From contig CAYSWB010000007.1 in NCBI GenBank assembly GCA_964434575.1, positions 4,702 to 68,701 of the forward strand: a DNA stretch of 64,000 bases. The letters are read 5' to 3'. The notes beneath the pieces were generated by a model. The model saw nothing but the letters and a program-made list of their open reading frames with translations, did not search any database and was not told the origin of the DNA. Positions 12,213 to 60,900 of this stretch are shown piece after piece. Both the position numbers and the translations under genes were made by a program. Position 1 is the stretch's first letter, and every line of letters starts with the position of its first letter. The stretch is from an uncultured Candidatus Peribacteria bacterium (GTDB taxonomy: Bacteria > Patescibacteriota > Gracilibacteria > Peribacterales > Peribacteraceae).

Positions 12213-12262
12213 TTTCAGCGAAGTCAAAGCGATCGGATTCGCCCGGCGCGTGAATATGGAGA

Positions 12263-41446: not shown

Positions 41447-41546
41447 CACCCCATTGTACCATATTTCGCCCCTTGGATGAAGCCCAGAGCGGGCCGGGGC
41501 GCCATTCGGTTGCGCGGCGGATGGCCCCTGACTAGACTTGGCATCT

Positions 41547-44500
41547 ATGGCGAATCCGGGCTTCTCAAGCCGACCGATTTACGGTGACGAGCCATCCGAC
41601 GATAACCGCGGCGAAACTCCTTTGGACGAGCCGCGCAGCACCCCTCCCGAAGGAGGATTTCGCCGGAGTCCGCGCTTGCGCCAACGCGCCAGCTACCGCG
41701 GCGGGGGAACCCGTACGGCAAACGCGCTTGCCCGCGTGAAAGGCGTCGTCTTCAAGAAACGCACGAAAAAGGAGTGGAAGACGATCGCCGTCCGCACGGT
41801 GGCCGGCGGCGCGGCGGCGGCCGTGCTTGGCCTTGCCCTGCTGTGGATCACGCTGCCGAACATCGACGACCCGAGCACGCTGTTCGCGTCGCAAAGCACG
41901 GCCATCGTGGACCGCAACGGCGTGGAGCTGTACCGCCTGTTCTCCGAACAAGACCGCACGTACATCCCGGGGGCCGAGATCAGCAACAGCGTGAAACAGG
42001 CGACCATCGCCATCGAAGACGAACGCTTCTTCAGCCGCGGCAGCTGCTTCGACATCATCGGCTTCAGCCGCGCCGTGCTCAGCCAGGTGTTGCCCGGCGC
42101 GCTGGTGCGCTCCGGAGGCTCGACATTGACGCAGCAGTTCGCCGGCAACGCGCTGGTGGGCCGCGAGCGCTCGCTGCTGCGCAAAATCCGTGAGCTGATG
42201 CTCGCCTGCAAGCTGGAACAGAAATACGACAAAGACCAGCTGCTGGAGCTGTACCTGAACTGGATCCCCTACGGACCCACGTCGTACGGCATCGAGCAGG
42301 CCGCCCGCAACTACTTCGGCACCGGCGCCAACAGCATCACGCTGGCGCAGGCCGCCGCGCTGGCGTCCATCCCGCAGCGCCCGTCGTACTTCAGCCCGTA
42401 CGGCAAGAACGTCCGCACGCAGGTCAGCGACCAGATCCTGGAGCGCATCATCAGCGGCGAAATCACGACGACCGCGCAGATCCCCGACGCCGGCGTGCGC
42501 ATCGGACTCATCGGCCAGGAAGTGGGTTCTGGCGCGACGAAAGTGTACGTGGGAGGACGCGCCGACCAGGTGCTGAAGAACATGCTCGACCAGAAGATGA
42601 TCAGTGAGGAAGAGCACGCCAAGGCGGTGGAGGACCTGAAAAAAATGGAGTTCCGCCGCGAGCGCGAGAACATCCGCGCGCCGCACTTCGTACTGGCCGT
42701 TCAGAAGCAGGCCGAGGAGCTGCTGGGCATCGATGAAGCGCTGCTGCAGCAGGGCGGCTTCAAGATCACCACCACGCTGGATTGGAACCTGCAGCAGGTC
42801 GCCGAGAAGGTCGTCGCCGATCACGCCGAGGACGTGACAAACCGCTTCGGCGCGCGAAACTCCGCGCTGCTGTCGCTGTCCACCAAGACGCGCGAAGTGC
42901 TGGCGTACGTCGGCAACACGGATTTCTCCGATGAGGAACATGAAGGAAAGATCGACATGGTGCGCGCGCCGCGCCAGCCGGGCTCCAGCTTCAAGGCATT
43001 CACGTACCTGTCCGCGTTCGAACAGGGCTACGGCCCGGGCAGCGTGGTCTACGACCTGCCGACCAAGTTCGGCGTGGACGAACCGCAGAACTTCGACGGC
43101 GCGTTCTGGGGGCTCATGACGATGCGCTCGGCGCTCGGTTCGTCGCGCAACATCCCGGCCATTAAGGCGTTCTTCCTGGGCGGCGGCGAGGAGCCGCTGC
43201 TGTCGCTGGCCGCACGCATGGGCGTGACGACTCCGACCACGCAGAAAGCCGAGTTCCGCAAAAACACCCCGGACTACGACTATGGATGGCCGCTGTCGAT
43301 CGGCGCCGCCGAAGTGCCGCTGTGGGAAATGACCCAGGGGTACGCGACCATCGCCGACGGCGGCAAATTCCTGCCGCCGGTCACGATCCTGAAGATCACC
43401 GACAGTTCCGGCAACATTCGCTACCAGCACAAGCCGGAAGCGCCCCAGGAGGTGGTGGACGCGCGCGTCGCCGCCATGGTGACGTCCGCGCTCAGCGACG
43501 TGTCCGTGCGTCCCAACGAATATTGGCAGACCGTGCTCTCGGTGCCCGGCATCCAGGCCGCCGCCAAGACCGGCACCAGCAACAAGTGTCTGGAGCGTGA
43601 CGCGAGCGGAGGCTGTACGCTGCGCCGCCCGGAAAGCACCTGGACCATGGGCTACACCCCGAGCCTCGTGACCGGCGTATGGGTGGGCAACGCCACCAGC
43701 CAATCGCTGTTCGACAAAGCCGACGGTCTCACGACCGCCGCGCCCATCTGGCACGAGTACATGATCGGCGCGCATCGCAAACTGACCGGCGTGACGACGT
43801 CGTTCACGATGCCGCCGAACATCACGCAGCCGCTGCTGTCCAAGCTCTCCGGCCAGCTGGCCAACGCCTGCACGCCGGTGGAACTGCGCAAATCCGATCT
43901 CTCGCTCGAGGAACGCACGCCGACCGCCGAGGATAGCGCCTGCGTCCTGCTGAAGGTGGATAAAGTCACGGGATTGCTGGCCTCCCCGGCCTGCCCGGCA
44001 GACGCCGTGGAGGAACGCGCGTTCTTCGTGCCCGAGAGCGAGCAGCCCACCCGCTGGCCGTTGTGGGAACAGGCGGTGCAGGAATGGGGCAAGAAGGAAA
44101 TGGAGAAGTGGAACGCCAACGAGACGCACTCCGGCTCCACGCTGCCGCTCCCCCTCCCGCCGACCGCCGAGTGCGACCCGGCGCTGACCCCCGGCCGTCT
44201 GGAGAAGCCCAGCGTGCAGCTCATCATCCCGTCGGGCGGATCGTCCGTGCCGTACCCGTCGTTCACGCCCAAGGCGAACATCGTGTCGCGCGGCAAGCTG
44301 AAGGAGGTGAAGTACTTCGTGGACGACAAGCAGGTCGCCGTATTCACCGAAGCCCCGTTCAACGGCCCCGTGCGCGTCCCCCGCTCCATCCTGGAGGAAG
44401 GCCAGCACAACATGAAGGTCGTCGTGACCGACGAGTACTTCAACACCGCCGAGGACACCTCCAGCTTCGTGTTCGAAGAGGACACCGGGCGCCCGCGCGT

Positions 44501-44762
44501 GCGGTTCGTGCCGGACAACGACGAACTGACCATGCCTGCCGGCAGCGAGATCGTGCTGACGGTGGATGCCACCGACGACGGCGGCATCGAGCGCGTGGAG
44601 TTCTTCATGGACGGACAACTGCTGACCGTGAAGCGCACCGCGCCGTACCAGCTGCAATACACGCTGAAGGAATCCGTGGGCGACCACGTCATCCGCGCGG
44701 TGGCGCGCGACACGGCCGGCAACGAAGGTTCGGCCGAGCTGACGCTGACGATCGGGTTCTAG
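41547..44762 (+). CDS. class A penicillin-binding protein with C-terminal Ig-like domains (1071 aa)
   Basis: IEDERFF, GGSTLTQQF, RKIRE, GSSFKAF, SSRN and KTGTS motifs. The C-terminal 230 aa or so contain two Ig-like repeats (YFVDDKQV...H.MKVVVTD and FFMDGQLL...HVIRAVARDTAGNEG). Confidence 0.85.
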   Translation: MANPGFSSRPIYGDEPSDDNRGETPLDEPRSTPPEGGFRRSPRLRQRASYRGGGTRTANALARVKGVVFKKRTKKEWKTIAVRTVAGGAAAAVLGLALLWITLPNIDDPSTLFASQSTAIVDRNGVELYRLFSEQDRTYIPGAEISNSVKQATIAIEDERFFSRGSCFDIIGFSRAVLSQVLPGALVRSGGSTLTQQFAGNALVGRERSLLRKIRELMLACKLEQKYDKDQLLELYLNWIPYGPTSYGIEQAARNYFGTGANSITLAQAAALASIPQRPSYFSPYGKNVRTQVSDQILERIISGEITTTAQIPDAGVRIGLIGQEVGSGATKVYVGGRADQVLKNMLDQKMISEEEHAKAVEDLKKMEFRRERENIRAPHFVLAVQKQAEELLGIDEALLQQGGFKITTTLDWNLQQVAEKVVADHAEDVTNRFGARNSALLSLSTKTREVLAYVGNTDFSDEEHEGKIDMVRAPRQPGSSFKAFTYLSAFEQGYGPGSVVYDLPTKFGVDEPQNFDGAFWGLMTMRSALGSSRNIPAIKAFFLGGGEEPLLSLAARMGVTTPTTQKAEFRKNTPDYDYGWPLSIGAAEVPLWEMTQGYATIADGGKFLPPVTILKITDSSGNIRYQHKPEAPQEVVDARVAAMVTSALSDVSVRPNEYWQTVLSVPGIQAAAKTGTSNKCLERDASGGCTLRRPESTWTMGYTPSLVTGVWVGNATSQSLFDKADGLTTAAPIWHEYMIGAHRKLTGVTTSFTMPPNITQPLLSKLSGQLANACTPVELRKSDLSLEERTPTAEDSACVLLKVDKVTGLLASPACPADAVEERAFFVPESEQPTRWPLWEQAVQEWGKKEMEKWNANETHSGSTLPLPLPPTAECDPALTPGRLEKPSVQLIIPSGGSSVPYPSFTPKANIVSRGKLKEVKYFVDDKQVAVFTEAPFNGPVRVPRSILEEGQHNMKVVVTDEYFNTAEDTSSFVFEEDTGRPRVRFVPDNDELTMPAGSEIVLTVDATDDGGIERVEFFMDGQLLTVKRTAPYQLQYTLKESVGDHVIRAVARDTAGNEGSAELTLTIGF

Positions 44763-47508: not shown

Positions 47509-48135
47509 TTAGCCGGTCGTTTCATCGGTCAGGGACGTCATCAGGCGCAGGTACCTTACGCATGCGGCCGCAGAAATGCCGGCGGGCAACGGCAGATCGT
47601 CCTGCGGCGGGAGAGCTTCCAGTGCATTGAGCGTCAGCTCATGGATACTGGTTGCTGGTTGGTCACCACGGCGATACGGCACGAACGCCGAGCGAGCCAG
47701 AAAATCCTCTTCGGTCTCGATAACAAGTTTGCTCTCGCCGGTAGGAGGAGCCCCGTCTATGACAACGCGCTGACCCTCCCGGCCCACCGCTGTCCAGTAA
47801 TGATACGGCATTACGGTTTCTGTACCGGTTGCTGGACGGGGCAACGCGTACACCGACGCAATGGGTACTGGGAGTTCCAGCTTGCGCACGGCGTGCCGCA
47901 CCGCACTCATACTGAAGCCACACGAACCGCTCTTCGGCGCCTTGCTGGCAGGCTTATAAATATCACGTCGCCACACTGCTGCGATTTCAGCGTTGAAGGT
48001 CGTGCGAAGTGCCGTCAGCGCACGCAAAAAGCGTGCTTCTTTTGGCTCTAAATGATTCCTCAAGACCCGCAATAAATCTGCCTGTGAAAAGCTGCCACAA
48101 TCAAGCGTACTGCGCTGGGGTGCGGGGCACGTCAT
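47509..48135 (-). CDS. paralog A of a conserved-Cys/His/Asp protein, predicted papain-like (transglutaminase/NAT-type) fold (208 aa)
   Basis: By eye it is roughly 40% identical to the 56866-57495 product. Shared blocks are FSQA(D/E)LLR, G(S/G)CGF, LPVP, YH(Y/F)W.AVG...QRV.IDGA.P, F.PYRRG.QP and LTDE. Spacings are Cys-40-His-15-Asp. Confidence 0.7.
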   Translation of the reverse strand: MTCPAPQRSTLDCGSFSQADLLRVLRNHLEPKEARFLRALTALRTTFNAEIAAVWRRDIYKPASKAPKSGSCGFSMSAVRHAVRKLELPVPIASVYALPRPATGTETVMPYHYWTAVGREGQRVVIDGAPPTGESKLVIETEEDFLARSAFVPYRRGDQPATSIHELTLNALEALPPQDDLPLPAGISAAACVRYLRLMTSLTDETTG

Positions 48136-48251: not shown

Positions 48252-48521
48252 TTACACTTTCTGGAACTGCATGCCGAGCACGTCGCCTTTCGCATCGGCG
48301 GTCACGGTCGCCCCCAGAAAACCGAAGTTGTGAACAAGCAGCATCCGGTAGGTGCCGATGGCGCCATCAACGGCATCCAGCGAAGCGGTATCAGCGCTGA
48401 CCTCGGCCGTGACGGCTACGGAATTGAATGTCGTCCGGCAAAACTCCGTGCCGGCTTTGGCAATGGAGTCGCCATGGAGCGCGAGGAGGTCTTTGGCAGA
48501 TGGCGGCAAGGAAGGCTTCAT
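48252..48521 (-). CDS. small hypothetical protein (89 aa) immediately downstream of the giant protease gene
   Basis: Third codon positions are mostly G/C by eye. The ATG at 48521 is 12 nt after the giant gene's stop (a TTG at 48527 is also in frame). The sequence looks beta-rich, and I recognise no family. Confidence 0.55.
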   Translation of the reverse strand: MKPSLPPSAKDLLALHGDSIAKAGTEFCRTTFNSVAVTAEVSADTASLDAVDGAIGTYRMLLVHNFGFLGATVTADAKGDVLGMQFQKV

Positions 48522-48533
48522 GGGCAAGTGGGA

Positions 48534-51500
48534 TTATTTCAAAAGGCGGCGCATGTCGACCGTCACGTAGCTGATGTCCGAGAAGGTTTCCAGGAAGGCG
48601 TTGTACCGCAGCGTGATGGGCTTGGATGTATCGTGCGGGTTTACGACGGTCACGGTCTTGGCGACGTTATCCACCGATTCGATGGAATACGCATGGGTAA
48701 AGTGAATGCGCACGTCGTTGCCCTGAACGTCTTTGACCGTGTACGTGAAGGTATCGTTGCGCAAGCGCGGCGTATTTGCCGTGGCGAAGTGCTTTTCCAC
48801 CGAGAAGGAGTTCAGGAAATCCAGCGCTTTCTGCTTTGAGTGAATCTCACCCTGGCTGATGGGACGGGCGTTTGCCGCGTCGCCGACGATATGGCCGGCT
48901 TCTCCGCTGTCAAAACCAAGCAGGCGTTGGATGGCCTCATGACCCAGGCCGCCGGTCGACGCCTTGCGGTTCACTTGCCCTCTTCCGTCGCGGCCATGCA
49001 CGGAAAGGGTATACGCCGCCTCCAGTACTTGGAAACCCACCGGCCCGTTCAGGCCGAAATACGCATGCGCGACCGTATGCTGGGCGAGTTGCAGGTCTCC
49101 GTCGTTCACCCGGACGATTTTCGAGCCCGGACCGCCGCCGAGCGGCACGCGAACGTCGTACCCCACCGTGAACTTCTGGCGGATGGTGCGCCCCCTGTTG
49201 TTGGGATCCGGCACGTCGAGCTCCTCGATGATCGGCGTAACGGCGGACCGCACGAGGATTTCAAAATGCGGCGACTGGCGCAGCGAGTGCAGCGAGGCGA
49301 CCAGGTAGCAGTTCCCCACGTTCTGCTGGGAAAAATCGCTGTCCGGAGGGAAGAGGTGCTGGAATGTCGACCGGTTGAGCGGCAGCTTTCCACCCTCGAG
49401 CAGATCCAGTTTTTTGCGGAAAAACTCGCTTTCCGGTGCCTCGCGCAGGGCCGGAATGCGCTCGCGCAGATCCTGCGGGCTGAACATGCGTTCCGCATCG
49501 TACGGAAGCGTGCGCCGCGTGGTGGGGTTGTATGCCTCCAGCTGACCGGAAGCCGTCCGGCGCACGATCCAGCCTTGTTCCAAGCTCGCGGGCGACGTGG
49601 ATGTTTTTGGGGTGAGCAGCAGTATCGCCTCGCCGTTTCGCGGAACGCGCCGCAACGCGGGGGCCACATAGCCGGTCTCGATGTAGGCGTTTTCGTCATT
49701 CAGGGGCAAAAGAATGTTCTTCAGGTCTTTGTACGGGACTCTGCTGATTCGAATCCGCGGAGAATCCGGATCGTAATGCACCGTCACCTTGCCGTCGGGG
49801 CCCATGGACGAGATCAAGACCGTGTCGCCCTTCGCATCCTGCGCCGCCGTGCCGATGGGAGGAACGACGAGTCGCTCTCCAGGCTTCAATCCGGTGTTGC
49901 GCTGCCAATCGCGCACGAGTTGGAGATCGATCCGGTAGAGAACGCCTGACGCATCTTTCACGATCGCAATATTGGGCTGGGCGGGGTCCACGGAGTCCAG
50001 CTTCAGTTCTTGCTGCGTTCCATCGACATTCGGGCGGATGATGAGCGTCTGCCCCGGCTTTACCTGTATGCCGTTGATGTCCACCGCGCCCGGCACGGCC
50101 TCCCGCACCGGCTGCACACGGCCGTTGGCGTCCAGCTGCGCGACATCCAGATGGAAATTCCGGTACTCGGTCTTGCCGTCCACAACGCGCTTGAACCGGC
50201 CCTTGGGCCTTCCTCCGCTGCCGTCTTCGGCGGGGCAGACGTACCGCCATTCTTCCACGGCACCGCCGCTGCGGCGCATGCGGTACAGGTTGTCTTGGAC
50301 GAAGTCCGAATGGTCCGGCAGCGCATCGGCCAGCGGCAGCGGATCGTCCGGCGGCGCGCGGCGCACTTTGCTGATGGGGAATCCTGAAGGATCTTCGTTC
50401 GTATCGACGCTGGTGAATTTGGGCGCGCCGCCGATGTCGCCGCCCACGTATTTCCAGCGCTCCACTTTGCCACTGCTTCGCGTGATCAAGTACACGGTAC
50501 CCTCGCGCAAGTCGGTCAGCGCCAACGGCGCTTCCGGCGCGGCCGGCTGTTCCTTGAACAACAGACGGCCGGCGATGACCTGGTCGCGCGTAAACCTTGC
50601 CCTTTCTCCGGTGCGGGTGTTTTTCATCAGGAGATCGCCCTTCTCATCGATGTCACCATCGAACGTGTAGACGGCGTCGCCGATCCGGACTTCCCTGCCG
50701 AGAACCACGTCCTGCTCCGCCCGGCGCTCCTGCTTCGAGAGCTTCTTGGGGGCGGCTGCGGGGTTCGCCTCGGCTTGTATGGCAACCTTCGCGGCGGCAA
50801 TGGCCTCGGCGATGGGTATGCGGCGCTGTTCGCCGTCGCTCTTGCGCTTCATGACATACGTGTCGGGCTCATTCCTGCTGAGGCGGACGTAGACGTACGT
50901 TTCGCCGCGAATCTCCACCGGCAACCCCGCCGCGATGCGCTTGGCGGCGGCATCGTCCGTGACCGATCCCGGAGCAGCGTCCGGGCTGCTTGGCGCAGCC
51001 AGGGCCGCGCGCGCCGCGTCCACCACTTCGGCCTGCGTGAACGTTTTCACAAGACCCGTCTTGGTGTCCTCCATCGCGAACTTCCCCCTGCTCGGCTCCC
51101 CGGCGAAGACGTATTCACGTCCATCGATCTTCACCTTCAGTCCCTGCTCCAACTTTGTAAGCACCGTGAGTTCCGGAATGTCTTTGCCGGCGGCAGGCGG
51201 CCGCACTTCGTCGTACCCCACCTCGGCATGCACGGCGTCGTAGACTTTGGATTTCGACACGTACACTTCCACTTGCGTGGTTGTATTGCGCATGACAAAC
51301 GAGTCCGGTTGGCTGGAGCTCTCGCGCACGAACACGAACGTCCCGGTCGCGTTCGGAAGCGCCAGCGTCACCGTTCCGCCCCTCCTGAGATAGTCGCTCA
51401 CGAATGCGTTCCCTCCGTCTCTTGGCGCCGCATAGTTTTTGTCGCCCACGATTTCATTGAGCGAGAGGGAGGCCTCGGCGCGCACGCCGTTCACGTCCAA

Positions 51501-54500
51501 CGAGAACACGTACTTGCCGTCCTGCACGCGCACGAACGTGGCGACTCGCAGCTTTCCGGCCGGCGTGCGAATGGTGTATTCCTGGCCGGGAACGATCCTG
51601 CGGGCATCGAAGGCATCACTCCTGCCGCACACGGCAGCGTCCAGGAGCAGCTGCGCATTGGCCCTGCCGAATACCGGCAGCAGAATGCGCGCCTTGCCGA
51701 ACATCTGTGCCCCGGTGAGATTATCGATCACGCCGGGGGCATTGTGCGCATCGAGCAGCGCCTTGCGCTCGGTATCGTTGAGCGTGCGTCCGATGAGCGC
51801 TTCGGCGATGAGCACGCGTGTCGCGTCGTCGACGTCGTTCTGAATCAGGAACTCCTTCAGCGCGGCCATTTGGCCGGGGTCGGCCTTCGCGGCGGCAGCC
51901 AGCTTGACGCCTTCGGCGCGCGTTTCGGGCCGGGTTTCTGGCGTCACGCTGGCCCCGGCGGTATCCGGAACCAGGACGATCGTACGGCCGTCGAGCTCCA
52001 CCGTGATCGTGCCGCTTACGTCGACGCTGACATTGCCGCCTTCCATGGTCGCCCATGCGACGACATCCGCCACGGCTTTCGTGGGATCGCCATTGGTCTG
52101 GTACTCGAACGTGGGCATCACGCGCGCCTGGGGATTGCCGGGCGTCTTGGGCTTGAAGTTCTGCCCCGCGATGATGAACAGGACCGACCAGTCTCCGACC
52201 ACGTCCTGCATTTTCTCTTCACCGACTTCCTGGGCGGTTTCCAGCACCCAGCTGCGCAGGAATTGCTTGGTGGTCACGCCTTTCGTCGCCTGCTGCTCGA
52301 TCTTGCCGAAGTACGTGAAAATGCGGTTCACCACGGGCGAGCGCGTCGCGAGGCCCTGCATGATCTTGGAATTGGCGAGCAGGGTCAGGCTCTTGCCGAT
52401 GACCGCTCCGGCTCCGGCGAAAGCAAGCGACGTGGCGAACTGCTCGGCGAACTGCTGGGCCAGCGGCTCGATGAAATGCTTCAGCGCGTCGACATGCTCC
52501 TCTCGACCCGTTTCCGGATTGAAGATTTTTTCGTCTTTGATCACGGCGCGGGCGAAGGCGCCGGTGCGGGACCTTGCGCGGTACGTCACTTTGCCGCTGC
52601 GGACATCCTCGTCGAATTCCTGATGCAGCTGGAAGCGCGCCTCGCTCACGACCTCGGACGTGAGCACGCCGGCGGTGGCCGAAATGGCCGCGATGGCGAG
52701 AGGAGACGTGATGCCAAGCGTGAAGACCGACACGACGATGGCGAGCACCACGATGGCGACCGTGATGATGAGCACGATGTTCTCCTCGAGCCACGTCCAG
52801 AACGTGCTGACGTCATACGAGGATTTGTCGACGATGTTGGCGCAGAACACCTCCAGGTCGGGCTTGCTGAGCATGGCCTCCAGGTCTTCCAGCGCCTTGA
52901 TGCGTTTGTCGATCTCCTGATCCAGCGCGGTCTTGTCCACTCCGGTGTTCACGCGGCGCAATTCCTGCAACCGGCCTTTCGCTTTGTTCACGTTGGTGCG
53001 CAGCGTGGGGTCGCGCAGCACGCCCAGCACGCTCGTCGCCTCCTGGCGCATCAGGTCGACCAGACTCTGCCGCCTGGTGCCGTCCTTGCCTGCTTCGAAC
53101 AGGCTCTGCATCAGGTTCAGCGAGCCTTGGATCTTGCCCGCGTCCGCAGTGATGCCGCGCACGGCCGGATCGGAATCGATGACGCGCAACACGTCGCGGG
53201 AGTCTTCCACGTTGCGCTTTTCCACGTCGTCAACCGATGCGAACCGGATGTTCCTGGCCGTGACGAACACGCTGTACGACGCCAGTTTGTTTTCGGGTTC
53301 GCTCGGGTTCGGCTCGCCCACCACCTGCAGCGCCGACCGGCCGTTCATGCCGCCTTCGATGCCGGACAATTGTTGATTGATTGTATTGATGGCGACGCGC
53401 CCGCCATCCGGGGGCGTGGAGTACCGCACGTCGACGCCGTGCAAGCCGCGGTTGGAACCCAAAACGTTCCTCGGATCGTCGAAGTTCTTGCCGTCGCGTT
53501 CCGTTTCGCGGCAGAGCCAGACGCCGTCGGTGCTCGAGAATACGTACTCCACCGTCAGTCCGCCGCTCTTCACGCGTACCCGGGTGTCGAAATCGATCGG
53601 CGAATCGGTCCGGTCCCAGTTCCGCTGGATGGATACTTCGCCGCCGCTTTTGGTCAGCACCTCCAGACCGCGGCGTTCCACTTCGCGCATTTCTTCCACG
53701 CTGCGCCCGATGCGCACGAACGCCAGGTCATCGGCCTTCAGCGTGTCGAACGTGGTGACAAGCTGTTGGTAGCGCGGCGGCGTGCGCAGGTCGTTGCTGG
53801 GCACGCGGATCACGTTGCCGAACGTCGGCTTCGACGGCTGGCGGCGCAACACGGCGGTGAAGCCTCGCGGGGCACCCCCCAGCTTCATGATGAAACTCTC
53901 GTCAAACGCGACCAGGTGCTCTTTGCCCTGGACGCCGACCTTGTACAGCGGCGTCCCGCGGAACCCGATGGTCCGGCTGGTGGTCAGCTCAACCGGCACG
54001 CTCTGGCCCTCGTACCGGCCCGAGTACGAGTCGTACTCCGCGACCGTGAACGACGTATCGGCGAACTGCCGGCGCTCGAACAACTCGCGGTTGTCGGCCG
54101 CCTGGTAGCTGCCGAGTTCCGGGCCGGCCTCGCGCGCCTCGCGGCGCCGGCGGACTTCCGGGTCGCTGCGTTCCACGAGACCGCGGCAGATGGCATTGAG
54201 CGCCTTGCGCTCGCCTTCCGGAATGGCCGGGTCGGTGAACCAATTGCCGTCCGGGTACCCGACGCGATACGACGGCTTTTCTTGGTTGAAGTGCCATTCG
54301 CCGCCAATGCCGCACGAGAACGTGCCTTTCACCGTCGCGGTCTCCACGGAATACAGAGCGAAAAAGTCATTGGCGCCGTCACCGACGCGCTTGACCGTCA
54401 CGCCGTTCTGGCCGTTCTGCGACAGCAGGAATTCCTTGGCCTGCTTGGTGAATTTCTCGCGCGGATTCTCGAAGTCTTCCGCATTGAACGGCAGCCTGCC

Positions 54501-56456
54501 GCCGCCTTTGCCGCGCAACACGACGCCTCCGCCGAAATCGACGGGGGCGGAATCGCCCTGTACCCGGATCGGCGCAAAGCGGCCGTTGCTGCGCAGCAGG
54601 TTCAGGTCCACCGAACGGCGCAGCCCGCGGGCTTGGGCGAGCAAATCGGAGTCGCGGTTGCCGGCCTGGCGGTCCACCGCCAGTTTGGTCGCGTCCTGGT
54701 CGCGGCCCTCGGCCATCGCCAGCTCCACCGGCGTCAGCTGGTTGCGCGCCTTCAGGCCGCCGATCGCCTCGGCGACGCGCTTGCCGAGATCGGGGTCCAT
54801 GCGGGCGATATCCGCGCCGTACTTCTCCCGGATTTTCAGGTAGAAACGGTCGCTCTCTTGCTGCCGGCCTTCGTTCTTCGCGACGGTGGCGTCGAAGATC
54901 GTAAGCGCGGCCTCGAAGTGGAACATGATCTGCTGCAGTCCGGCGATGACCTGTTGTTCTTTTTGGATGGTTTCGCGCGCGGAGCGGATGTTCTTCACCA
55001 GGCGTTCGACCTTCGCCTTGTCGGCGTCTTTGCGTGTTTCATCGGCGAGGTTCTTGGTTTCGTTCTGGATGAACGTCTGTGTGCTTTCGATGTTGCGCTG
55101 CGGCTCCAGCGTGCGGTCGAGCACGAATTCGTACTTGCGGCGGATGAGGTCCTCCGGTTTACCCAGCAGGTACGCGTGCGTCACACTTACGGCCTGCGTG
55201 GGCGTCGGTTGCGGGGGCAGCACGCCGCGGCCCAGCTGCGTCGCGAGCTGCCGCATGTCCACGGGCGGGCGGAACGGAAAGCCGCTGGATTCGCAGATGG
55301 CGGGACTCAGCTTGTTGACCAGCGACACGCGCGACACGACCAAGCGCAGCGTGGTCTCGCCGTACCGCTCCGTCGCCGTCTTCACGTATTCCTCCATGGT
55401 TTTGGGGTCGAGCGGCGAGTCCGTGGTGAGCTGCTCGAACAGCTGCCGCACGGTGGTCTTCGGCGCGTCCGCCCCAAGCTCGGCCTGCTCGCCCCGCAGT
55501 CTGGCGTACTCGGTGCGGTAGCCCGGGAGCGCGTCTTCGATCGCTTTGATGCGCGCGGAAATGAGCTCGCCGGACTTGTCGTTCAGCATCCCCTGGTTCG
55601 GATACCGGGCCAGGTGGACGCGCTCTTCTTCGTTGGCGTCGATGAGCAGCTCCAGGGTTTCCACGACTCTCTGCGCGACGACCGGCGACGCGGACCTGGC
55701 GGTGTTGAACGTGATCCACGCCTGGTCGGAGCGGTCGCGCAGCGCCTGCATGGTGGCCTGGTCCCTCGGTAACGCGGCCAGCACGTCGTTGCGCTCTTTG
55801 CGGTAGCCGACAAGCGCGGCCTCGATGGCCGCACAGCGCTGCTGGACGGTGCCGCCCATGACGGCGTCGTTCCAGTCGGGCGGCTTCACGCCATCGCGCA
55901 GGTACGCCAGTTCGGCCTCGTTGGCGCGGATGACTTCGTCGCAGGCGCTGGCATGCGCCAGGCCGCCGACCTTGCGCGCGTTGACCAGCGTCACGTTGTA
56001 CGCGTCGTCCGAACGCTTGCGCAGCTGCTGGAAGCTGACGGGCCCGGCGGCATACCGGCGCACCTCGCGGACATCCTCGGGCCGCAACGATTCCAGGAAC
56101 CGGTCGATCGAGGCGCTGAATTCGGGGATGCCGGAATCCAGGTTGTCGTCATTCACGTTCACCAGCCGCCCCGCCAATCCGCCCTCCGCATCGTTGCAGG
56201 CCTTCTCCAGCGCGGGCCAGTTCGGGTTGCGCATGTCTTTGCCGATTTCCACGTGCAACCTGAGCTGGCGGATGCGCGCCTGGAGCTCGTTCACGCGGTT
56301 GATGTACGTCTTGGTGCGCTCGGCGATCTGCTCTTCGGTCGCGCCGCCGCGGCCTTCGACCTTGCCGTCGGCTTTGTTATCCAACCTGTCGAGCCTTTGC
56401 TGCTGACGCTGGATGTTGGTTTCATTCGATGCCGACTCCGGTCCGGGAGGCATCAT
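48534..56456 (-). CDS. giant protein (2640 aa): helical N-region, beta-rich modules, central TM segments, about 10 small beta-rich repeats, C-terminal calpain-like cysteine protease
   Basis: A single uninterrupted ORF with protein-like composition throughout. The N-terminus is hydrophilic with no signal peptide. There is a hydrophobic stretch at aa 1226-1270. The C-terminal motifs are QQNVGNCYLVASLHSL, FTHAYSI and VVNPHD. Confidence 0.85.
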   Translation of the reverse strand: MMPPGPESASNETNIQRQQQRLDRLDNKADGKVEGRGGATEEQIAERTKTYINRVNELQARIRQLRLHVEIGKDMRNPNWPALEKACNDAEGGLAGRLVNVNDDNLDSGIPEFSASIDRFLESLRPEDVREVRRYAAGPVSFQQLRKRSDDAYNVTLVNARKVGGLAHASACDEVIRANEAELAYLRDGVKPPDWNDAVMGGTVQQRCAAIEAALVGYRKERNDVLAALPRDQATMQALRDRSDQAWITFNTARSASPVVAQRVVETLELLIDANEEERVHLARYPNQGMLNDKSGELISARIKAIEDALPGYRTEYARLRGEQAELGADAPKTTVRQLFEQLTTDSPLDPKTMEEYVKTATERYGETTLRLVVSRVSLVNKLSPAICESSGFPFRPPVDMRQLATQLGRGVLPPQPTPTQAVSVTHAYLLGKPEDLIRRKYEFVLDRTLEPQRNIESTQTFIQNETKNLADETRKDADKAKVERLVKNIRSARETIQKEQQVIAGLQQIMFHFEAALTIFDATVAKNEGRQQESDRFYLKIREKYGADIARMDPDLGKRVAEAIGGLKARNQLTPVELAMAEGRDQDATKLAVDRQAGNRDSDLLAQARGLRRSVDLNLLRSNGRFAPIRVQGDSAPVDFGGGVVLRGKGGGRLPFNAEDFENPREKFTKQAKEFLLSQNGQNGVTVKRVGDGANDFFALYSVETATVKGTFSCGIGGEWHFNQEKPSYRVGYPDGNWFTDPAIPEGERKALNAICRGLVERSDPEVRRRREAREAGPELGSYQAADNRELFERRQFADTSFTVAEYDSYSGRYEGQSVPVELTTSRTIGFRGTPLYKVGVQGKEHLVAFDESFIMKLGGAPRGFTAVLRRQPSKPTFGNVIRVPSNDLRTPPRYQQLVTTFDTLKADDLAFVRIGRSVEEMREVERRGLEVLTKSGGEVSIQRNWDRTDSPIDFDTRVRVKSGGLTVEYVFSSTDGVWLCRETERDGKNFDDPRNVLGSNRGLHGVDVRYSTPPDGGRVAINTINQQLSGIEGGMNGRSALQVVGEPNPSEPENKLASYSVFVTARNIRFASVDDVEKRNVEDSRDVLRVIDSDPAVRGITADAGKIQGSLNLMQSLFEAGKDGTRRQSLVDLMRQEATSVLGVLRDPTLRTNVNKAKGRLQELRRVNTGVDKTALDQEIDKRIKALEDLEAMLSKPDLEVFCANIVDKSSYDVSTFWTWLEENIVLIITVAIVVLAIVVSVFTLGITSPLAIAAISATAGVLTSEVVSEARFQLHQEFDEDVRSGKVTYRARSRTGAFARAVIKDEKIFNPETGREEHVDALKHFIEPLAQQFAEQFATSLAFAGAGAVIGKSLTLLANSKIMQGLATRSPVVNRIFTYFGKIEQQATKGVTTKQFLRSWVLETAQEVGEEKMQDVVGDWSVLFIIAGQNFKPKTPGNPQARVMPTFEYQTNGDPTKAVADVVAWATMEGGNVSVDVSGTITVELDGRTIVLVPDTAGASVTPETRPETRAEGVKLAAAAKADPGQMAALKEFLIQNDVDDATRVLIAEALIGRTLNDTERKALLDAHNAPGVIDNLTGAQMFGKARILLPVFGRANAQLLLDAAVCGRSDAFDARRIVPGQEYTIRTPAGKLRVATFVRVQDGKYVFSLDVNGVRAEASLSLNEIVGDKNYAAPRDGGNAFVSDYLRRGGTVTLALPNATGTFVFVRESSSQPDSFVMRNTTTQVEVYVSKSKVYDAVHAEVGYDEVRPPAAGKDIPELTVLTKLEQGLKVKIDGREYVFAGEPSRGKFAMEDTKTGLVKTFTQAEVVDAARAALAAPSSPDAAPGSVTDDAAAKRIAAGLPVEIRGETYVYVRLSRNEPDTYVMKRKSDGEQRRIPIAEAIAAAKVAIQAEANPAAAPKKLSKQERRAEQDVVLGREVRIGDAVYTFDGDIDEKGDLLMKNTRTGERARFTRDQVIAGRLLFKEQPAAPEAPLALTDLREGTVYLITRSSGKVERWKYVGGDIGGAPKFTSVDTNEDPSGFPISKVRRAPPDDPLPLADALPDHSDFVQDNLYRMRRSGGAVEEWRYVCPAEDGSGGRPKGRFKRVVDGKTEYRNFHLDVAQLDANGRVQPVREAVPGAVDINGIQVKPGQTLIIRPNVDGTQQELKLDSVDPAQPNIAIVKDASGVLYRIDLQLVRDWQRNTGLKPGERLVVPPIGTAAQDAKGDTVLISSMGPDGKVTVHYDPDSPRIRISRVPYKDLKNILLPLNDENAYIETGYVAPALRRVPRNGEAILLLTPKTSTSPASLEQGWIVRRTASGQLEAYNPTTRRTLPYDAERMFSPQDLRERIPALREAPESEFFRKKLDLLEGGKLPLNRSTFQHLFPPDSDFSQQNVGNCYLVASLHSLRQSPHFEILVRSAVTPIIEELDVPDPNNRGRTIRQKFTVGYDVRVPLGGGPGSKIVRVNDGDLQLAQHTVAHAYFGLNGPVGFQVLEAAYTLSVHGRDGRGQVNRKASTGGLGHEAIQRLLGFDSGEAGHIVGDAANARPISQGEIHSKQKALDFLNSFSVEKHFATANTPRLRNDTFTYTVKDVQGNDVRIHFTHAYSIESVDNVAKTVTVVNPHDTSKPITLRYNAFLETFSDISYVTVDMRRLLK
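48537..49394 (-). other. calpain-like (peptidase C2-type) catalytic domain of the giant protein (aa ~2355-2640)
   Basis: HLFPPDSDFSQQNVGNCYLVASLHSL (Cys2383, codon 49308-49310), HFTHAYSIESV (His2588, 48693-48695) and VTVVNPHD (Asn2606, 48639-48641). The order and local contexts mirror the calpain motifs QG.LGDCW.LAA, GHAYS and RNPWG. Confidence 0.65.
49467..51596 (-). repeat. about 10 tandem 50-60 aa beta-rich modules (coding repeats, aa ~1621-2330)
   Basis: The recurring pattern G..(Y/V).(F/V)......(D/G).(F/Y/L).M/V........(F/I)....V is separated by Pro/Ala-rich linkers. Examples are GREYVFAGEPSRGKFAMEDTKTGLVKTFTQAEVVDA, GETYVYVRLSRNEPDTYVMKRKSDGEQRRIPIAEAI and GDAVYTFDGDIDEKGDLLMKNTRTGERARFTRDQVI. 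Confidence 0.55.
52647..52781 (-). other. central hydrophobic (TM) segments of the giant protein (aa 1226-1270)
   Basis: NIVLIITVAIVVLAIVVSVFTL and SPLAIAAISATAGVLTSEVV. A third weaker hydrophobic stretch lies at aa 1341-1361. Confidence 0.6.
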
Positions 56457-56782
56457 GCGGCGTCGAAGAAATGCTTGAGCTGTTCGTCTTCATCGGCCTT
56501 TTCAAACGGCTCCTCGGCCTTGCTCAGCTGGCTCGCGGCGGCGGCGAACAAGCTATCCAATTGCACAAAGAACGCCGTATCGTTGCGCTTGGAAGCGGCG
56601 TCGATGGTCGCCGCCATCGCCTTCTGCACGACGGCGGGCTCACCCTCCAGGATGGCGCGCAGACGCGCCGCCTGTTCCGCGTTCAGCGACGGCAGCGCGC
56701 GCAGCAGCGCCTGTCGCTGCTTGGGCTTCAGCAGCCGCGACGATTCCACCAGTGTGTTGAGTGTTGGTTTTTGGGCCGACAT
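56453..56782 (-). CDS. small helical protein (109 aa) translationally coupled to the giant gene
   Basis: ATG at 56782 (an in-frame TTG lies at 56836). Its TGA overlaps the giant gene's ATG as ATGA (56453-56456). TGgTATACT (-10 at 56793-56798) lies 10 nt upstream. Confidence 0.6.
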   Translation of the reverse strand: MSAQKPTLNTLVESSRLLKPKQRQALLRALPSLNAEQAARLRAILEGEPAVVQKAMAATIDAASKRNDTAFFVQLDSLFAAAASQLSKAEEPFEKADEDEQLKHFFDAA

Positions 56783-56865
56783 AAATCTCTTGAGTATACC
56801 AGAAAAACGCCGTTTCGTGAAACGTGCTTCCCGCAAGTCGGAGCGGAGAACGGCGCTTTTGGAGC

Positions 56866-57495
56866 CTATTCCGTCAGTGTGTCCTCGTCCGTGAGGGTAT
56901 TGACGAGTCCGTAGAACGCAGCGCGTACGTCGGCCGACAAGCGTCCGATCATCGGAAAAATAATGCCCTCTTTCGTGGCGGCGGCATCGAGTGTTTTTTC
57001 ATGCGGGGAACCGGGCTGTTCGCCGCGCCGATACGGGGCGAAAAATGCCTGCTCGGCATGCTCGGTTTCCGGCGCGATCCAGAGACGTCGTTTCCCCGGG
57101 TGCGCGCCATCGATTGCCACGCGCTGTTCCGGGTGGCCGACGGCAACCCAGAAATGGTACGAGGAACCGGCTTCTTCCGGCGTGACACTTGGCTTCATTA
57201 AGCCATACATAAGCTGTGTCGGCACCGGCAAATCCAGCTCCGCAACGCCATCCAAAATCGCCTGCGCCACAAACCCGCATCCACCGGCCTTCGGCATCGC
57301 CTGGGGAGACATGAACATGGCACGCGTGCCGAGGGCGATTTTCAGCTCATGATTCAGTCTGGCGCGGAGTCCGTCGAGCGCCTGCAAAAACTGGTCTTCT
57401 CGCGGACCAAAATACGCCTGTAAACCGCGCAGCAATTCCGCTTGGGAAAAGTCGCCCCCATCGAACGGTTTTTGCGACGGATACTGCGTACTCAT
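56866..57495 (-). CDS. paralog B of the conserved-Cys/His/Asp protein (209 aa)
   Basis: See paralog A. Motifs are KAGGCGFVAQ, SYHFWVAVGHPEQRVAIDGAHP and FAPYRRGEQP. The start is set at the ATG at 57495, which abuts an AT-rich promoter. The longer ORF to 57612 runs through that promoter. Confidence 0.7.
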   Translation of the reverse strand: MSTQYPSQKPFDGGDFSQAELLRGLQAYFGPREDQFLQALDGLRARLNHELKIALGTRAMFMSPQAMPKAGGCGFVAQAILDGVAELDLPVPTQLMYGLMKPSVTPEEAGSSYHFWVAVGHPEQRVAIDGAHPGKRRLWIAPETEHAEQAFFAPYRRGEQPGSPHEKTLDAAATKEGIIFPMIGRLSADVRAAFYGLVNTLTDEDTLTE

Positions 57496-57501
57496 ATATA
57501 T

Positions 57502-57529
57502 ACCATACAATATTTTATAATATATGCAA
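57502..57529 (-). promoter_or_regulatory. leaderless-type promoter of paralog B
   Basis: On the minus strand: TTGCAT (57529-57524), 16 nt, TATGGT (57507-57502), 6 nt, ATG(57495). Confidence 0.5.
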
Positions 57530-57612
57530 TATCGACAGTGATCCGCGTCGTGTCCCGGGACTTCTGAAACAACCGTTTTTCTGCTATGATTGTATGAAAA
57601 TCCAACATCCAC

Positions 57613-57915
57613 ATGACTCTCGACGATTTCATTGCCCGCGCGAAAACTTGGACGCTGTTTCCCGCCGATATTTTGGAGGCGGCCGTGAACGACGCGTTTT
57701 TCCTAGTCTTTGACGAGCGCGCCGTGCTTGCCGCAAAGCTCGACAGCATCCATACGGCATGCCGGCGAATCGATGCCGAACGCTTCCGGCGCTTCGCGGC
57801 GGCCGAGCAAGCGTTGGACGACATCCGCCGCGCGACGCTCCCCGTCGTCTATGCGGCGGTCGAACAGAGCGAGAGGGACCAGGCGTTGGACGACATCACC
57901 AAGCAATTCGAATGA
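57613..57915 (+). CDS. small helical protein (100 aa) translationally coupled to the 1513-aa gene
   Basis: ATG start at 57613. Its TGA overlaps the next ATG as ATGA (57912-57915). Composition is helical. Confidence 0.6.
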   Translation: MTLDDFIARAKTWTLFPADILEAAVNDAFFLVFDERAVLAAKLDSIHTACRRIDAERFRRFAAAEQALDDIRRATLPVVYAAVEQSERDQALDDITKQFE

Positions 57916-60900
57916 CGCTCTTCTCCGAGCACCGGCTCCTTCATCTCGCGGGCGGCGAAGGCCCCAGCGGCGATGTCGAGCGGAAGGAAAAAGCCGTGAA
58001 ATCCGCTTCCGCCAGCGAACCGGTCGAACCGGGGCGCGAAGGGTTTGAGAAGGACACGAAAGAAGTCGGCGCAATGCTGCTGAAGGCCGACCCGACCGGC
58101 AAAAAAGTGGAGAAGCCCCTGAAGGAGCTGACGGCGACGCGTGAAAAAGTCCTGAAGGAAGACGACAACCTGCAAAAAGAAAAAAAGGTTGAGATCGAAG
58201 GCGCCCGCAAGGTCGTGGACGAGTCTAGGCCACGGTCTGCGGAACGTCCGACCATCCCCGCCGACGCCTCGGTGCTGCCCGAAGACGTGAACATCCGCGA
58301 CAGCCGTCTGAACGGCTACCAGCTCCGCACCATCGGCGGCGTCATCATCGCCGCGAAACCCGGCAATCCGCAGATCTTCTCGGTCGAACCGGGTATCGGC
58401 GCGACGGTGACGCTCACCGAACTCGTCGGCAACACGAAGCAGCGCTTCGCGATCCTGCTGACGTTCGTCGGCAACCAGCGCTTGGTGGACGGAGCATCGC
58501 TCCCGGGCGCTGAGACGGCGTACAACTACGGCCGGCGCGGCGATTCCCTTATTCGCTACGCGAAGAACGGAGCGGAAACGCTGGTCGTGAACCCGCAGTT
58601 CGACGACAACTGGCGTCCGCTGTACCAGCAAGTCGTGGAAATGCAGGAGAACGTCGGCAGCAGCGCGTTGCAGCAGGGAGGCTACCGCCAGGAAGGCGAC
58701 GGTACGTGGAAGAAGGCGGGATCGCCGTGGCAGTTCCGCGCCGACGGCACGGGCCGCTGGCTGGTCCGCAACGGCACGGGGCCACTCATGCCCGTCGAAA
58801 CCACCAACGTCGCGCCGGAAGACCCCGAACTGGGCGTGTTCCAGAACCTGGGCGCTGCACTGCGCATCACCAACGAGGGCGTGCAGGCGCGCCTGAACAG
58901 CGACAACGCTCAATCCATCAAGCGCGAAGGCGCCGTGCAGATCCTCAAACTCGGTGCAAAGCCGTATGACGGCGAAGGCGGCGGCTGGGAGTACAGCACC
59001 GGCTTCAGCGTGAACGTGAACCCCCAATTTCAATTCGTCGGCGGCCGCTGGGCCGTCCGCTGGTTCACATCCGAAGCATGGAGCGACCCCGGCTCGCGCC
59101 GCGCGGCATCGGGAGGCGGTGAAGAGGCGATCAACAACATCCTGTCGTATCTGGCCGGACTGAACGAACGCATCGGACGCGGCGTGCCGCTCACGTTCGC
59201 GCGCCCGCCGGAACAGAGGCCGGTGACCGTCGCCCCGCTGGTGCCCAAGGCCCAACAGGAAGCGGCTGCGCAACCCGACCCGACCGAGGGTATGACCGAG
59301 GAACAGAAGGATGCGTATAAGGAAAGCATCATCAAGCAGTTCGTCGAAAAAGAGCAGCAAACCGGCGTTGCCGCGGAGGCGTACGACAAGAGCAAGAACA
59401 CCAAAGACCTGCTCTCCGTGATCAGCAGCATGCAAGGCGAGCTGGAATTTTTGCGCCAGAACAGCAAGTTGATGGATAAGGAGGCTCCGGCGGCCAAAAC
59501 CGCATTCGAGCGACTGCTGCAGCGTCGCACACAGACATTGGAAGCCGCGCTGAAGCAGCTGGAACCAGTGGTTCGTGACCTGGCACAACGCTCCGAAGCA
59601 GGCATCCGCCGCGCACGCGCCAAAATCATGGAAGTCATCGGCCGCGAGCGGCAGCAGATCATCAACGCCTACGAGCAGCGCGCCGCCGGCGGCACGTTCG
59701 GCTCGTTGAAAACCGGCCTCACCGGCTCGGACCCGTATGCGCTCTTGATCACGGATGCCGAAATGACGATCTCGCGCATGAACCTGTCGCTGGACCGCCT
59801 GAACAAAGCCGACGCCGAGCCCGAAGGTCTCGCGAAACTGCGGGCCGTGCAATCGGCGCTCAGCAGCATCGCCATCGCCAACCGTAGCGACGCCGCATTC
59901 TACCAGGAAGTCTTCGCCATCGAGCAGGAAGCCATCACCGTCACGCGTGACGTTACCATCGCGGTCATCACGACGGTGGTGCCCATCGGCGCCGGCGCGG
60001 TATTCAGCGGGCTGAAAACAACCGCCGCGGTGGCCAACACCGCCAATGCCGCCAAAACGCCTCTCTTGGTCGTGTTCCGCCAGGGCGCCGTGGAAGGCGC
60101 TACGCTTGCGGCCCCCGGCGCGGTCGGCAAGGGTGTGGATGACGTCCAACGCGGCGCCAAGACCGTGAAACAGGCCATCGTCGACGGCACCATCGAGGTC
60201 GGCGTGGGTGCGGGATTGGGCGGCGGACTGAAGACCGGATTCACCGCCGGCGGACGTGGCATCAGCGCTCTGCGCGGCAACAAGCCGGCACCCGGCGTCG
60301 AACCCGTGCCGGGCGGCGCCCCAGAGCCCATTCCGGTCGTGAAGCCCAAAGTCGGACCAGACGGTATTCCGTTCGTGAAACCCAAGCCCATCGGTGCAGA
60401 TGGCATTCCGGTCGTGAAGCCCAAACCCATCGGCACCGACGGCATTCCGGTGGTCAGGCCGAAACCGAAGATCGGACCGGACGGTATCCCCATCGTGAAA
60501 CCCAAGCCCGCCACGAGTGCGCCAAAGGCAACGCCGGAACCGCCGGCGCCGAAACCGACCACGCGCCTGGTCGGCAAAGCGGACCTGCCGAAGGTAACCG
60601 TCAACCAGCTCAACAAGCGCTACACGGAAATCGTTTCCGGTACCGCCAAGAACGTGCAAAAAAACGAACTCGCCACGCTGCGCGCCGAATTCGCCCGCCG
60701 CGGCATCGCGCCGCCGACCGTGAAGAGCGGCCCAGTGCAGGTAAACCCTCTGCCCGACGCCATCGGCCCCACGCCCGCCACGAACCTCTTGCCGGCTGCC
60801 GGCCGCCCACTGCGCGACACCACGCTCCGCACCGCCACCGATGCGCGCGTCATTGCGCGCTACCAGGCGCTTGTCGGCCGCCGCGCCGCGCCGCGTCCCG

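Follow-up and report, generated by a model that had tools for sequence, protein, structure and literature searches.

Calpains are textbook eukaryotic proteases that act in signalling under the regulation of Ca2+. Among them, the phytocalpain DEK1 is a giant multi-pass membrane protein with about 21-23 transmembrane (TM) segments and a C-terminal calpain, in which a C2L domain comes after the CysPc domain. A cysteine protease gene followed by the gene of a small cytoplasmic inhibitor is the arrangement of staphopain-staphostatin operons, and the staphostatins are eight-stranded beta-barrels. In bacteria, a census of 2015 counted 67 calpain homologues in seven phyla, with none in the Candidate Phyla Radiation (CPR) and a single copy per bacterium (PMC4631099); most of them are predicted to be Ca2+-independent (Rawlings 2015, PMC4631099), and those fused to WXG domains were predicted, in a reviewer comment, to be toxins of the type VII secretion system (PMC4631099). 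Polymorphic toxins combine a conserved N-terminal part with recombining C-terminal enzymatic domains and a co-varying downstream gene, and several papain-like toxin domains (Tox-PL1, Tox-PLC39 and others) are known in such systems; the 23 peptidase clades listed in their compendium do not include calpain, and the word 'calpain' has 0 occurrences there (PMC3482391). In this report, we describe a calpain-type (MEROPS family C2) domain at the extreme C-terminus of a 2640-amino-acid (aa) protein, which is encoded within a stretch of 64,000 nucleotides (nt) from an uncultured Candidatus Peribacteria bacterium (the whole stretch is called the window below), and we suggest that this protease is one payload of a larger system consisting of a membrane-hairpin scaffold and two linked small genes.

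The calpain-type domain and its catalytic residues

Assigning the domain to the calpains needed profiles, because searches with the single sequence were either below threshold or empty. Compared directly with Pfam Peptidase_C2, the window domain scored 16.5 bits against a gathering score of 23.8 (expectation value (E) 0.0044), with a match confined to 25 residues that surround the Cys (query positions 73-97 of 340), and the single sequence had no match in NCBIfam or, by phmmer, in the Protein Data Bank (PDB). Four relatives were returned by a single-sequence database search, and a profile built on those found 28, many of which have precomputed PF00648 matches; NCBI lists one of them, encoded in a Candidatus Azambacteria genome, under the name 'C2 family cysteine protease'. 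When 32 relatives were scanned individually, 24 matched PF00648 (best E 1.3e-11). The Pfam comparison that an earlier, sequence-only reading of this DNA had put forward as a check thus gave a divided answer, sub-threshold for the domain itself but positive for most of its relatives. A five-sequence profile found calpains in the PDB at non-significant values only (E about 1-2), and with a 32-sequence profile, searched by hmmsearch against PDB sequences, all 14 matches were calpains (calpain-8 at E 2e-5), the Cys, His and Asn-Pro blocks falling on catalytic positions. Further profile evidence came from HHalign, by which a 169-sequence family profile matched the human calpain-1 (CAPN1) core over the whole domain (98.2% probability, E 3.6e-13, 252 columns; the CAPN1 core sequence used is 100% identical to PDB 7w7o/2ary), mapping Q2377/C2383/H2588/N2606 onto CAPN1 Q109/C115/H272/N296.

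The predicted structure agrees with the profiles. An AlphaFold model of the domain, built on the 32-sequence alignment, had a predicted local distance difference test score (pLDDT) of 93.1 and a predicted template modelling score of 0.90, and in a Foldseek search of the PDB ranks 1-12 were all calpain cores (CAPN5, 1, 3, 9, 2 and 8; E 7.3e-8 to 1.1e-4, probability 1.00), the next fold family being phytochelatin synthase at E 2e-3. A caveat is that the Foldseek template modelling scores to calpain cores are moderate (0.44-0.55), which we attribute to lobe orientation and to insertions and deletions relative to calpains. Transglutaminases and other clan-CA families are not favoured, since the top structural and profile matches were all calpains. 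Profiles and model together show that the domain has a genuine calpain-family (MEROPS C2, clan CA) cysteine protease fold, as the sequence-only reading had proposed when it called for structure prediction. That reading had also placed the domain at 48537-49394 (aa 2355-2640); this interval lies inside the domain, but the profile envelope and the structure model put the start earlier, at about aa 2332 (window position 49463).

The calpain core has Cys, His and Asn in that order, with the oxyanion-hole Gln N-terminal to the Cys (PMC4631099), and Q2377, C2383, H2588 and N2606 follow this order in the giant protein. The motif FPPDSDFSQQNVGNCYLVASLHSL begins at aa 2369, HFTHAYSIESV at 2585 and VTVVNPHD at 2602, and the spacings, 205 residues from Cys to His and 18 from His to Asn, are those noted in the sequence-only reading, which had named Cys2383, His2588 and Asn2606 as the residues whose conservation should be checked. 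We counted conservation across the 169-member C2 family, in which 159 or 162 members align at a given site. Cys occupies the nucleophile position in 159/159 and His the general-base position in 162/162; the Gln six residues N-terminal of the Cys is present in 156/159, and the Asn position is held by Asn in 142 and by Asp in 19 of 162, a replacement tolerated in some calpains (PMC4631099). Given this conservation in the family, the alignments indicate that the motif resemblance is beyond chance. In the predicted model, Cys2383 is the first residue of a helix (52-62), and the His (model residue 257) and the Asn (model residue 275) lie on adjacent strands, a placement that, as modelled, is typical of papain-like enzymes and of the papain clan. 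The residue after the Asn-Pro is Trp in 71 family members, as in the N-P-W of calpains, and His in 66, including the window (His2608, 48633-48635). As long as a calpain is free of Ca2+, this Trp is wedged between its two lobes, and the split between Trp and His may mark two regulatory subtypes. A further variation is an insertion of ~20-25 residues (IIEELDVPDPNNRGRTIRQKFTVGY; aa ~2410-2440, window about 49140-49230) in the N-terminal lobe, modelled as a beta-hairpin extension, which distinguishes the subclade of the window, P0001 and P0032 from the other family members.

The Ca2+ sites of calpains were compared in the same alignment; in the calpain-2 core, these are formed by I89/G91/D96/E175 and E292/D299/Q319/E323 (PMC4631099). 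CAPN1 E185, which belongs to site 1 and lies in EGNEFW, pairs with a conserved Gly in the family (a mapping of E185 to the GG...E loop was wrong and was discarded), and the equivalent of CAPN1 D106 is D2374 in the window but is variable across the family (D in 40 and E in 25 of 158). The ~31-residue segment after N-P-W that bears site 2 (E302, D309, D331 and E333) is absent, the C2 domain stops 34 residues after Asn2606, and Pfam gave no match to C2L or EF-hand domains. By this alignment, the calpain core's two Ca2+ sites are not retained, which does not exclude membership of family C2, because most bacterial homologues are also without these sites. With the Gln-Cys-His-Asn set intact and the calpain-type Ca2+ sites absent, we infer that the domain is most likely an active, Ca2+-independent thiol endopeptidase.

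In an exhaustive search of cluster representatives, 1625 proteins had E<=1e-3 and 483 had E<=1e-10, and genome loci were found by a scan with a five-sequence alignment. The hosts are Peribacteria, Peregrinibacteria, Gracilibacteria, Azambacteria and other Patescibacteria, together with a few metagenome-assembled genomes (MAGs) of Cyanobacteriota/Gastranaerophilales. On these sequence searches, the domain belongs to a large, divergent C2 subfamily that is without Ca2+ sites and is centred on CPR/Patescibacteria. The statement of the sequence-only reading that calpain-type domains are uncommon in bacteria is accordingly true of the 2015 census (PMC4631099) but not of this subfamily. A typical family member is soluble, of ~490 aa, and free of TM or signal segments, and the C2 domain stands at the extreme C-terminus in 132/141 members. 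One contig (L019:1-7548) carries at least four tandem C2-protease paralogs (603, 531, 554 and >767 aa), three of which are each followed by a nearly identical open reading frame (ORF) of 92 aa; this array contradicts the 2015 statement of only one calpain homologue per bacterium. Taken on its own, the domain adds a new and divergent member to a known family, relatives of which already bear the NCBI label given above, and our literature search found no paper that relevantly links Patescibacteria to calpain.

Scaffold, payload and linked small genes

Blocks held in common with other giant proteins divide the window protein into two halves (Table 1). The first consists of a helical N-terminal block (aa 1-117), a block at aa 220-610 and a central block (aa ~1030-1515), and it ends with a small conserved module, GF[KR]P...DG.T...PD (aa 1431-1515). 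An internal hydrophobic block, present in most long family members, sits within the central block, and because it is the only strongly hydrophobic stretch of the protein, the description of the protein as mid-anchored in the sequence-only reading was correct. The second half begins with a linker rich in P, T, S and E, followed by a 'DDATR...IAEALIG' module (~aa 1520-1615) that is common to other C2-bearing giants, and ~700 aa of variable, unassigned beta-rich modules (~aa 1620-2330) precede the C2 domain. No internal repeats were found in the giant protein by self-blastp.

Table 1. Window coordinates of the giant gene, its parts, the predicted catalytic residues and the two linked genes
Feature	Position	Strand	Basis or remark
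Giant ORF	48534..56456	-	2640 aa plus stop
Scaffold half, aa 1-1515	51912..56456	-	Blocks common to L020, L021, P0033, P0035, P0046, P0064 and L007
Hydrophobic helical hairpin, aa 1219-1271	52644..52802	-	Alignment: helix, invariant G-x-x-x-P-L turn, Gly/Ala-rich helix
Payload half, aa 1516-2640	48537..51911	-	Linker, shared module, variable beta-rich modules, C2 domain
Calpain-type (MEROPS C2 / Pfam PF00648-like) cysteine protease domain, aa 2332-2640, extreme C-terminus	48537..49463	-	HHalign, model, Foldseek, PF00648 matches of relatives
Gln2377, predicted oxyanion-hole residue	49326..49328	-	Aligned to CAPN1 Q109
Cys2383, predicted nucleophile	49308..49310	-	Aligned to CAPN1 C115
His2588, predicted general base	48693..48695	-	Aligned to CAPN1 H272
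Asn2606, predicted His-orienting residue, in N-P-H-D	48639..48641	-	Aligned to CAPN1 N296
89-aa ORF, putative neutraliser (immunity protein or inhibitor)	48252..48521	-	Starts 13 nt past the giant stop
127-aa ORF, scaffold-linked accessory gene	56453..56836	-	Overlaps the giant start by 4 nt

The scaffold blocks recur in other C2-terminated giants (P0032, P0033, P0035, P0046, P0064 and L007), which differ from one another in the stretch that leads from the central block to the C2 domain; in P0033 (E 1.5e-24) and P0046 (E 8e-15) this stretch contains a Pkinase domain. A scan of metagenome contigs with the central block also retrieved two complete ORFs without a C2 domain, L020 (1967 aa) and L021 (1743 aa). 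These two are 90% identical over aa 1-1143 and unalignable beyond, and their DNA is 89.65% identical over 3768 nt with no identity beyond; P0033 shares 63% identity with both over ~1157 aa and then diverges. The breakpoint lies just past the GF[KR]P...DG.T...PD module, within the P/T/S/E-rich linker. On the far side of it, the payloads seen are Pkinase plus C2 in P0033 and, in L021 (L021:2587-8629, a P0033-type scaffold), a Zeta_toxin domain (E 1.5e-11) with a sub-threshold Fic match at the C-terminus (E 0.015, 16.6 versus 24 bits, motif HHLFEDGCGK), which we take as a hint only; no domain could be assigned to the C-terminal half of L020. Because L020, L021 and P0033 share their N-terminal part and then carry unrelated C-terminal halves, the alignments show aa 1-1515 to be a conserved scaffold and aa 1516-2640 to be one version of an exchangeable payload of ~1100 aa ending in a calpain. 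The suggestion of the sequence-only reading, that the domain occupies the C-terminal position usually taken by the variable effector module of polymorphic systems, gained support from these same-scaffold relatives.

The two small genes on either side of the giant follow different parts of it. The family of the 89-aa protein comprises five database clusters plus locus translations, and its members lie directly downstream of a C2-terminated ORF in 8/8 independent loci examined (the window, L001, L005, L007, L022, L023, L024 and L025) and are absent from both same-scaffold loci without C2, L020 and L021, where the downstream genes are instead a 214-aa ORF and an HD_4 protein. Since L022, which is the P0033 locus, has the 89-aa family and the scaffold-related L020 and L021 do not, this gene tracks the payload and not the scaffold. 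The 127-aa gene tracks the scaffold, because a homolog of it directly precedes the giant in both L020 and L021 (tblastn, 27% identity, E 1e-5 and 3e-5). In Pfam, neither small protein had a match, and the 89-aa ORF had none in PADLOC. The model of the 89-aa protein (pLDDT 81) has one long helix plus about four strands. In L021, the giant is followed by an overlapping HD_4-domain ORF, and it is possible that the Zeta_toxin giant and this ORF form a toxin/antidote pair of a different chemistry. Shorter C2 proteins followed by an ORF of 92-103 aa are found in other Patescibacteria (L003, L015, L016 and three times in L019).

Proposed function and rival explanations

We propose that these genes form a three-gene module, in which the 127-aa gene would go with the scaffold and the 89-aa gene with the C2 payload of the giant. 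The scaffold would hold a membrane helical hairpin and be joined through the P/T/S-rich linker to the exchangeable payload; the C2 protease would attack cytoplasmic proteins, whether in another cell or in the producer itself, and would have its cognate neutraliser in the 89-aa protein. We lean, at slightly better than even chances, towards an effector reading, in which the domain would serve a polymorphic-toxin-like conflict system of Peribacteria/CPR as a thiol endopeptidase and would be neutralised by the 89-aa protein. This reading rests on the logic of the module, which matches polymorphic toxins in its conserved N-terminal part, its recombining C-terminal enzymes and its small downstream gene co-varying with the C-terminal domain, the immunity role of that gene being putative. 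The enzyme types seen as payloads on the scaffold, Zeta- and Fic-type enzymes among them, have cytoplasmic targets and are common as toxins, and kinase, Zeta and Fic-like payloads need nucleotides and act in a cytoplasm, whichever cell it belongs to. A wider version is more tentative, and we think it possible without expecting it to be right: an undescribed polymorphic effector system of CPR bacteria, in which the hairpin scaffold, with its upstream accessory protein, would carry swappable payloads (a calpain protease, a Ser/Thr kinase, a Zeta-toxin or Fic-like enzyme) destined for host or competitor cells, and a new family of ~90-aa proteins would provide calpain-specific immunity or inhibition.

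Several results weigh against an effector role, and some of them speak for a housekeeping, membrane-tethered regulatory calpain. By analogy with DEK1, the giant protein would then stay in the membrane of the producer with both halves in the cytoplasm, the protease would make limited cuts in endogenous substrates close to the membrane, and the 89-aa protein would serve as a cofactor or regulator. The giant protein has no signal peptide or known trafficking domain (Pfam, NCBIfam and PDB matches for the N-terminal block; a WXG100/LXG or other targeting domain was sought there and only coiled-coil noise was seen), an N-terminal hydrophobic segment occurs in 1/133 family members, and the window gene annotation contains no secretion genes. 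A conserved hairpin without a signal peptide predicts that both halves lie on the same side, in the cytoplasm of the producer, and in relatives the same half contains kinase domains that require ATP. Payload swapping has been seen in two metagenomic loci plus P0033/P0035, and within the window's own lineage the C-terminus does not vary, since P0032, L005, L001, L023 and L024 all keep C2. The payload and the locus (giant, small ORF, yebC, ATP-binding cassette (ABC) transporter, class-A penicillin-binding protein PBP1A) are stable in this lineage down to 50% identity, a pattern more in keeping with the vertical inheritance of a core gene than with a toxin that swaps rapidly. The content of GC at third codon positions (GC3) is 0.83 in the giant gene, typical of the window's other genes, and the neighbourhood is housekeeping; to this may be added the soluble ~490-aa form of most family members. 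Also against the effector reading, the 89-aa protein has no significant Foldseek match in the PDB (best E 0.31, weak matches to NTF2-like ketosteroid isomerase and monellin) and its fold matches none of the known inhibitors or immunity proteins significantly, which leaves the idea of a cystatin/NTF2-like inhibitor unsupported; homology to the 92-aa small-ORF family of other Patescibacteria could not be demonstrated (hhalign probability <=0.2% in three settings), and position, size and collinearity are all that the two families share. PADLOC defence models likewise gave no meaningful match for the module. A housekeeping calpain leaves unexplained, however, why unrelated payloads, including Zeta_toxin, are found on 90%-identical scaffolds, why the downstream gene co-varies with the payload, and why C2 genes and small ORFs occur as pairs in tandem arrays; we consider it a serious minority possibility, less probable than an effector.

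The same swapping of payloads could serve an intracellular conflict system, similar to abortive infection or toxin-antitoxin systems, in which a membrane sensor scaffold would carry a self-directed effector (protease, kinase or Zeta-like) held in check by the downstream protein until triggered. Defence systems commonly exchange effectors on a conserved sensor; Zeta and Fic are well-known toxins of toxin-antitoxin pairs, and an HD_4 gene stands downstream in L021; no export signal is present; and a small gene linked to the payload would fit an antidote. We nevertheless judge this unlikely, because the module genes have no PADLOC match (a weak GajA match to the 127-aa ORF, E 0.0034, is not meaningful), no NTPase or sensor domain was recognised in Pfam and NCBIfam scans, and the size and the repeat-rich payload would be unusual for such systems. 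Less likely still is a processing role, in which the C2 domain would mainly cut its own polypeptide to free upstream modules and would leave foreign substrates alone, by analogy with the proteases of multifunctional autoprocessing repeats-in-toxin (MARTX) and large clostridial toxins or with DEK1 autolysis. Calpains do autolyse on activation (PMC4631099), polymorphic toxins are known to contain releasing peptidases of papain-like type (PMC3482391), and the kinase upstream in relatives could be the released effector; but releasing peptidases are usually internal to the toxin domain, which is hard to reconcile with the extreme C-terminal position of C2 in nearly all family members, no enzyme other than C2 could be recognised in the window protein or in most short members, and a dedicated cognate small protein suggests that the protease itself is the hazardous activity. 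There is, finally, the explanation that the motifs resemble calpain by chance or mark an inactive pseudo-protease. The direct Pfam score below the gathering threshold, with its 25 matched residues, and the negative single-sequence PDB and NCBIfam searches would allow it. Profile, structure and conservation evidence agree with one another, however, and every catalytic residue is intact, so that this explanation is effectively refuted and we give it almost no credence.

An effector with its immunity protein, if that reading is true, would represent a new delivery architecture for polymorphic toxins and would provide a testable protease, inhibitor and scaffold for studying how ultra-small bacteria with an epibiotic life deal with their hosts; as a delivered payload, the protease would offer a handle on how CPR epibionts manipulate or kill partner cells. 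A housekeeping enzyme, if true, would be the bacterial equivalent of DEK1 and other membrane-tethered calpains. In Peribacteria, the C2 domain sits on a conserved scaffold with a membrane hairpin, as one of several payloads that can be exchanged, and it is accompanied by a small protein of its own. In the literature searched, there appears to be no description of a mosaic of scaffold and payload in CPR, of an internal hairpin that stands where a known delivery domain would be expected, or of a calpain payload with a partner family of ~90 aa.

Genomic setting and comparison with known systems

The nearest genome locus, L005, comes from an uncultured Candidatus Peribacteria MAG and is 80% identical across the C2 domain, its giant showing 71% identity over aa 1023-2640 (1642 aa available). 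P0032 (2610 aa) is a full-length ortholog with 50% identity over 2610 aa, and L001, from another Peribacteria MAG, is syntenic in the giant C-terminus, small ORF, yebC, ABC transporter and PBP1A. Elsewhere, the window contains chromosomal housekeeping genes (PheT, two PBP1A, an S41 protease, VanW, M16, cysteine desulfurase and ribosomal protein S6). A pair of paralogous ORFs, 47509-48135 (-) and 56866-57612 (-), flanks the module formed by the 127-aa, giant and 89-aa genes; they share 39-40% identity over ~208 aa, have a GC3 of ~0.61 compared with 0.8-0.9 in their neighbours, and had no Pfam or PADLOC match. The copy at 47509-48135 is missing at the syntenic Peribacteria loci L001, L005 and L024, where yebC comes directly after the small ORF. 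The module is also adjoined by a second very large ORF (57759-62453 (+), 1564 aa, divergent), with one internal hydrophobic segment near aa 730 and no match in Pfam or PADLOC. Within the 64 kb there are two class-A penicillin-binding protein genes (transglycosylase plus transpeptidase; 41538-44762 (+) and 16601-18679 (+)), of which the larger encodes C-terminal Big_7 Ig-like domains, and two PMT_2-family glycosyltransferase-like membrane proteins (9258-12227 and 23999-25831).

Compared with the eukaryotic calpain core (CAPN1, CAPN5, CAPN8 and CAPN9), the window domain has the same two-lobed papain-like fold (lobes PC1 and PC2), the same order and context of Gln, Cys, His and Asn-Pro, the LLEKAYAK-like helix (QVLEAAY) and the GG...E...G loop. 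It differs in its low identity (about 13-19%), in being without the Ca2+ site 2 segment, C2L/domain III and EF-hands, and in the N-P-H of the window subclade where calpains have N-P-W. It resembles the described bacterial homologues in lacking the Ca2+ sites, in the varied architectures of its family and in a membrane association, which some of them share (PMC4631099). Unlike the WXG100-fused bacterial calpains, it is preceded by a scaffold of ~1500 aa and no WXG100 domain.

The resemblance to DEK1 lies in the layout, a giant protein whose membrane anchor is far upstream of a C-terminal calpain core, so that the protease would be tethered near the membrane; the window protein has one hairpin and no C2L, and we saw no sequence relationship outside the protease core. 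In staphopain-staphostatin operons, as here, only a few nucleotides separate the gene of a papain-clan protease from that of a small soluble protein (~90-110 aa) downstream, but the 89-aa protein, with one helix plus about four strands predicted and no significant PDB match, differs from the staphostatin fold. Membrane-associated phytocalpains are mentioned in the survey of bacterial homologues (PMC4631099). The polymorphic toxins (Zhang et al. 2012, PMC3482391) share with this locus a conserved N-terminal region, C-terminal enzymes that differ abruptly between close relatives, a toxin-position domain at the extreme C-terminus and a small co-varying gene immediately downstream. The locus departs from them in having no recognised trafficking module (T5/T6/T7, Sec, MuF or PVC) and no RHS/FHA repeats, in its internal membrane hairpin, in the stability of the payload in the window's own lineage, and in the very large, multi-domain unit (600-1600 aa) that is swapped.

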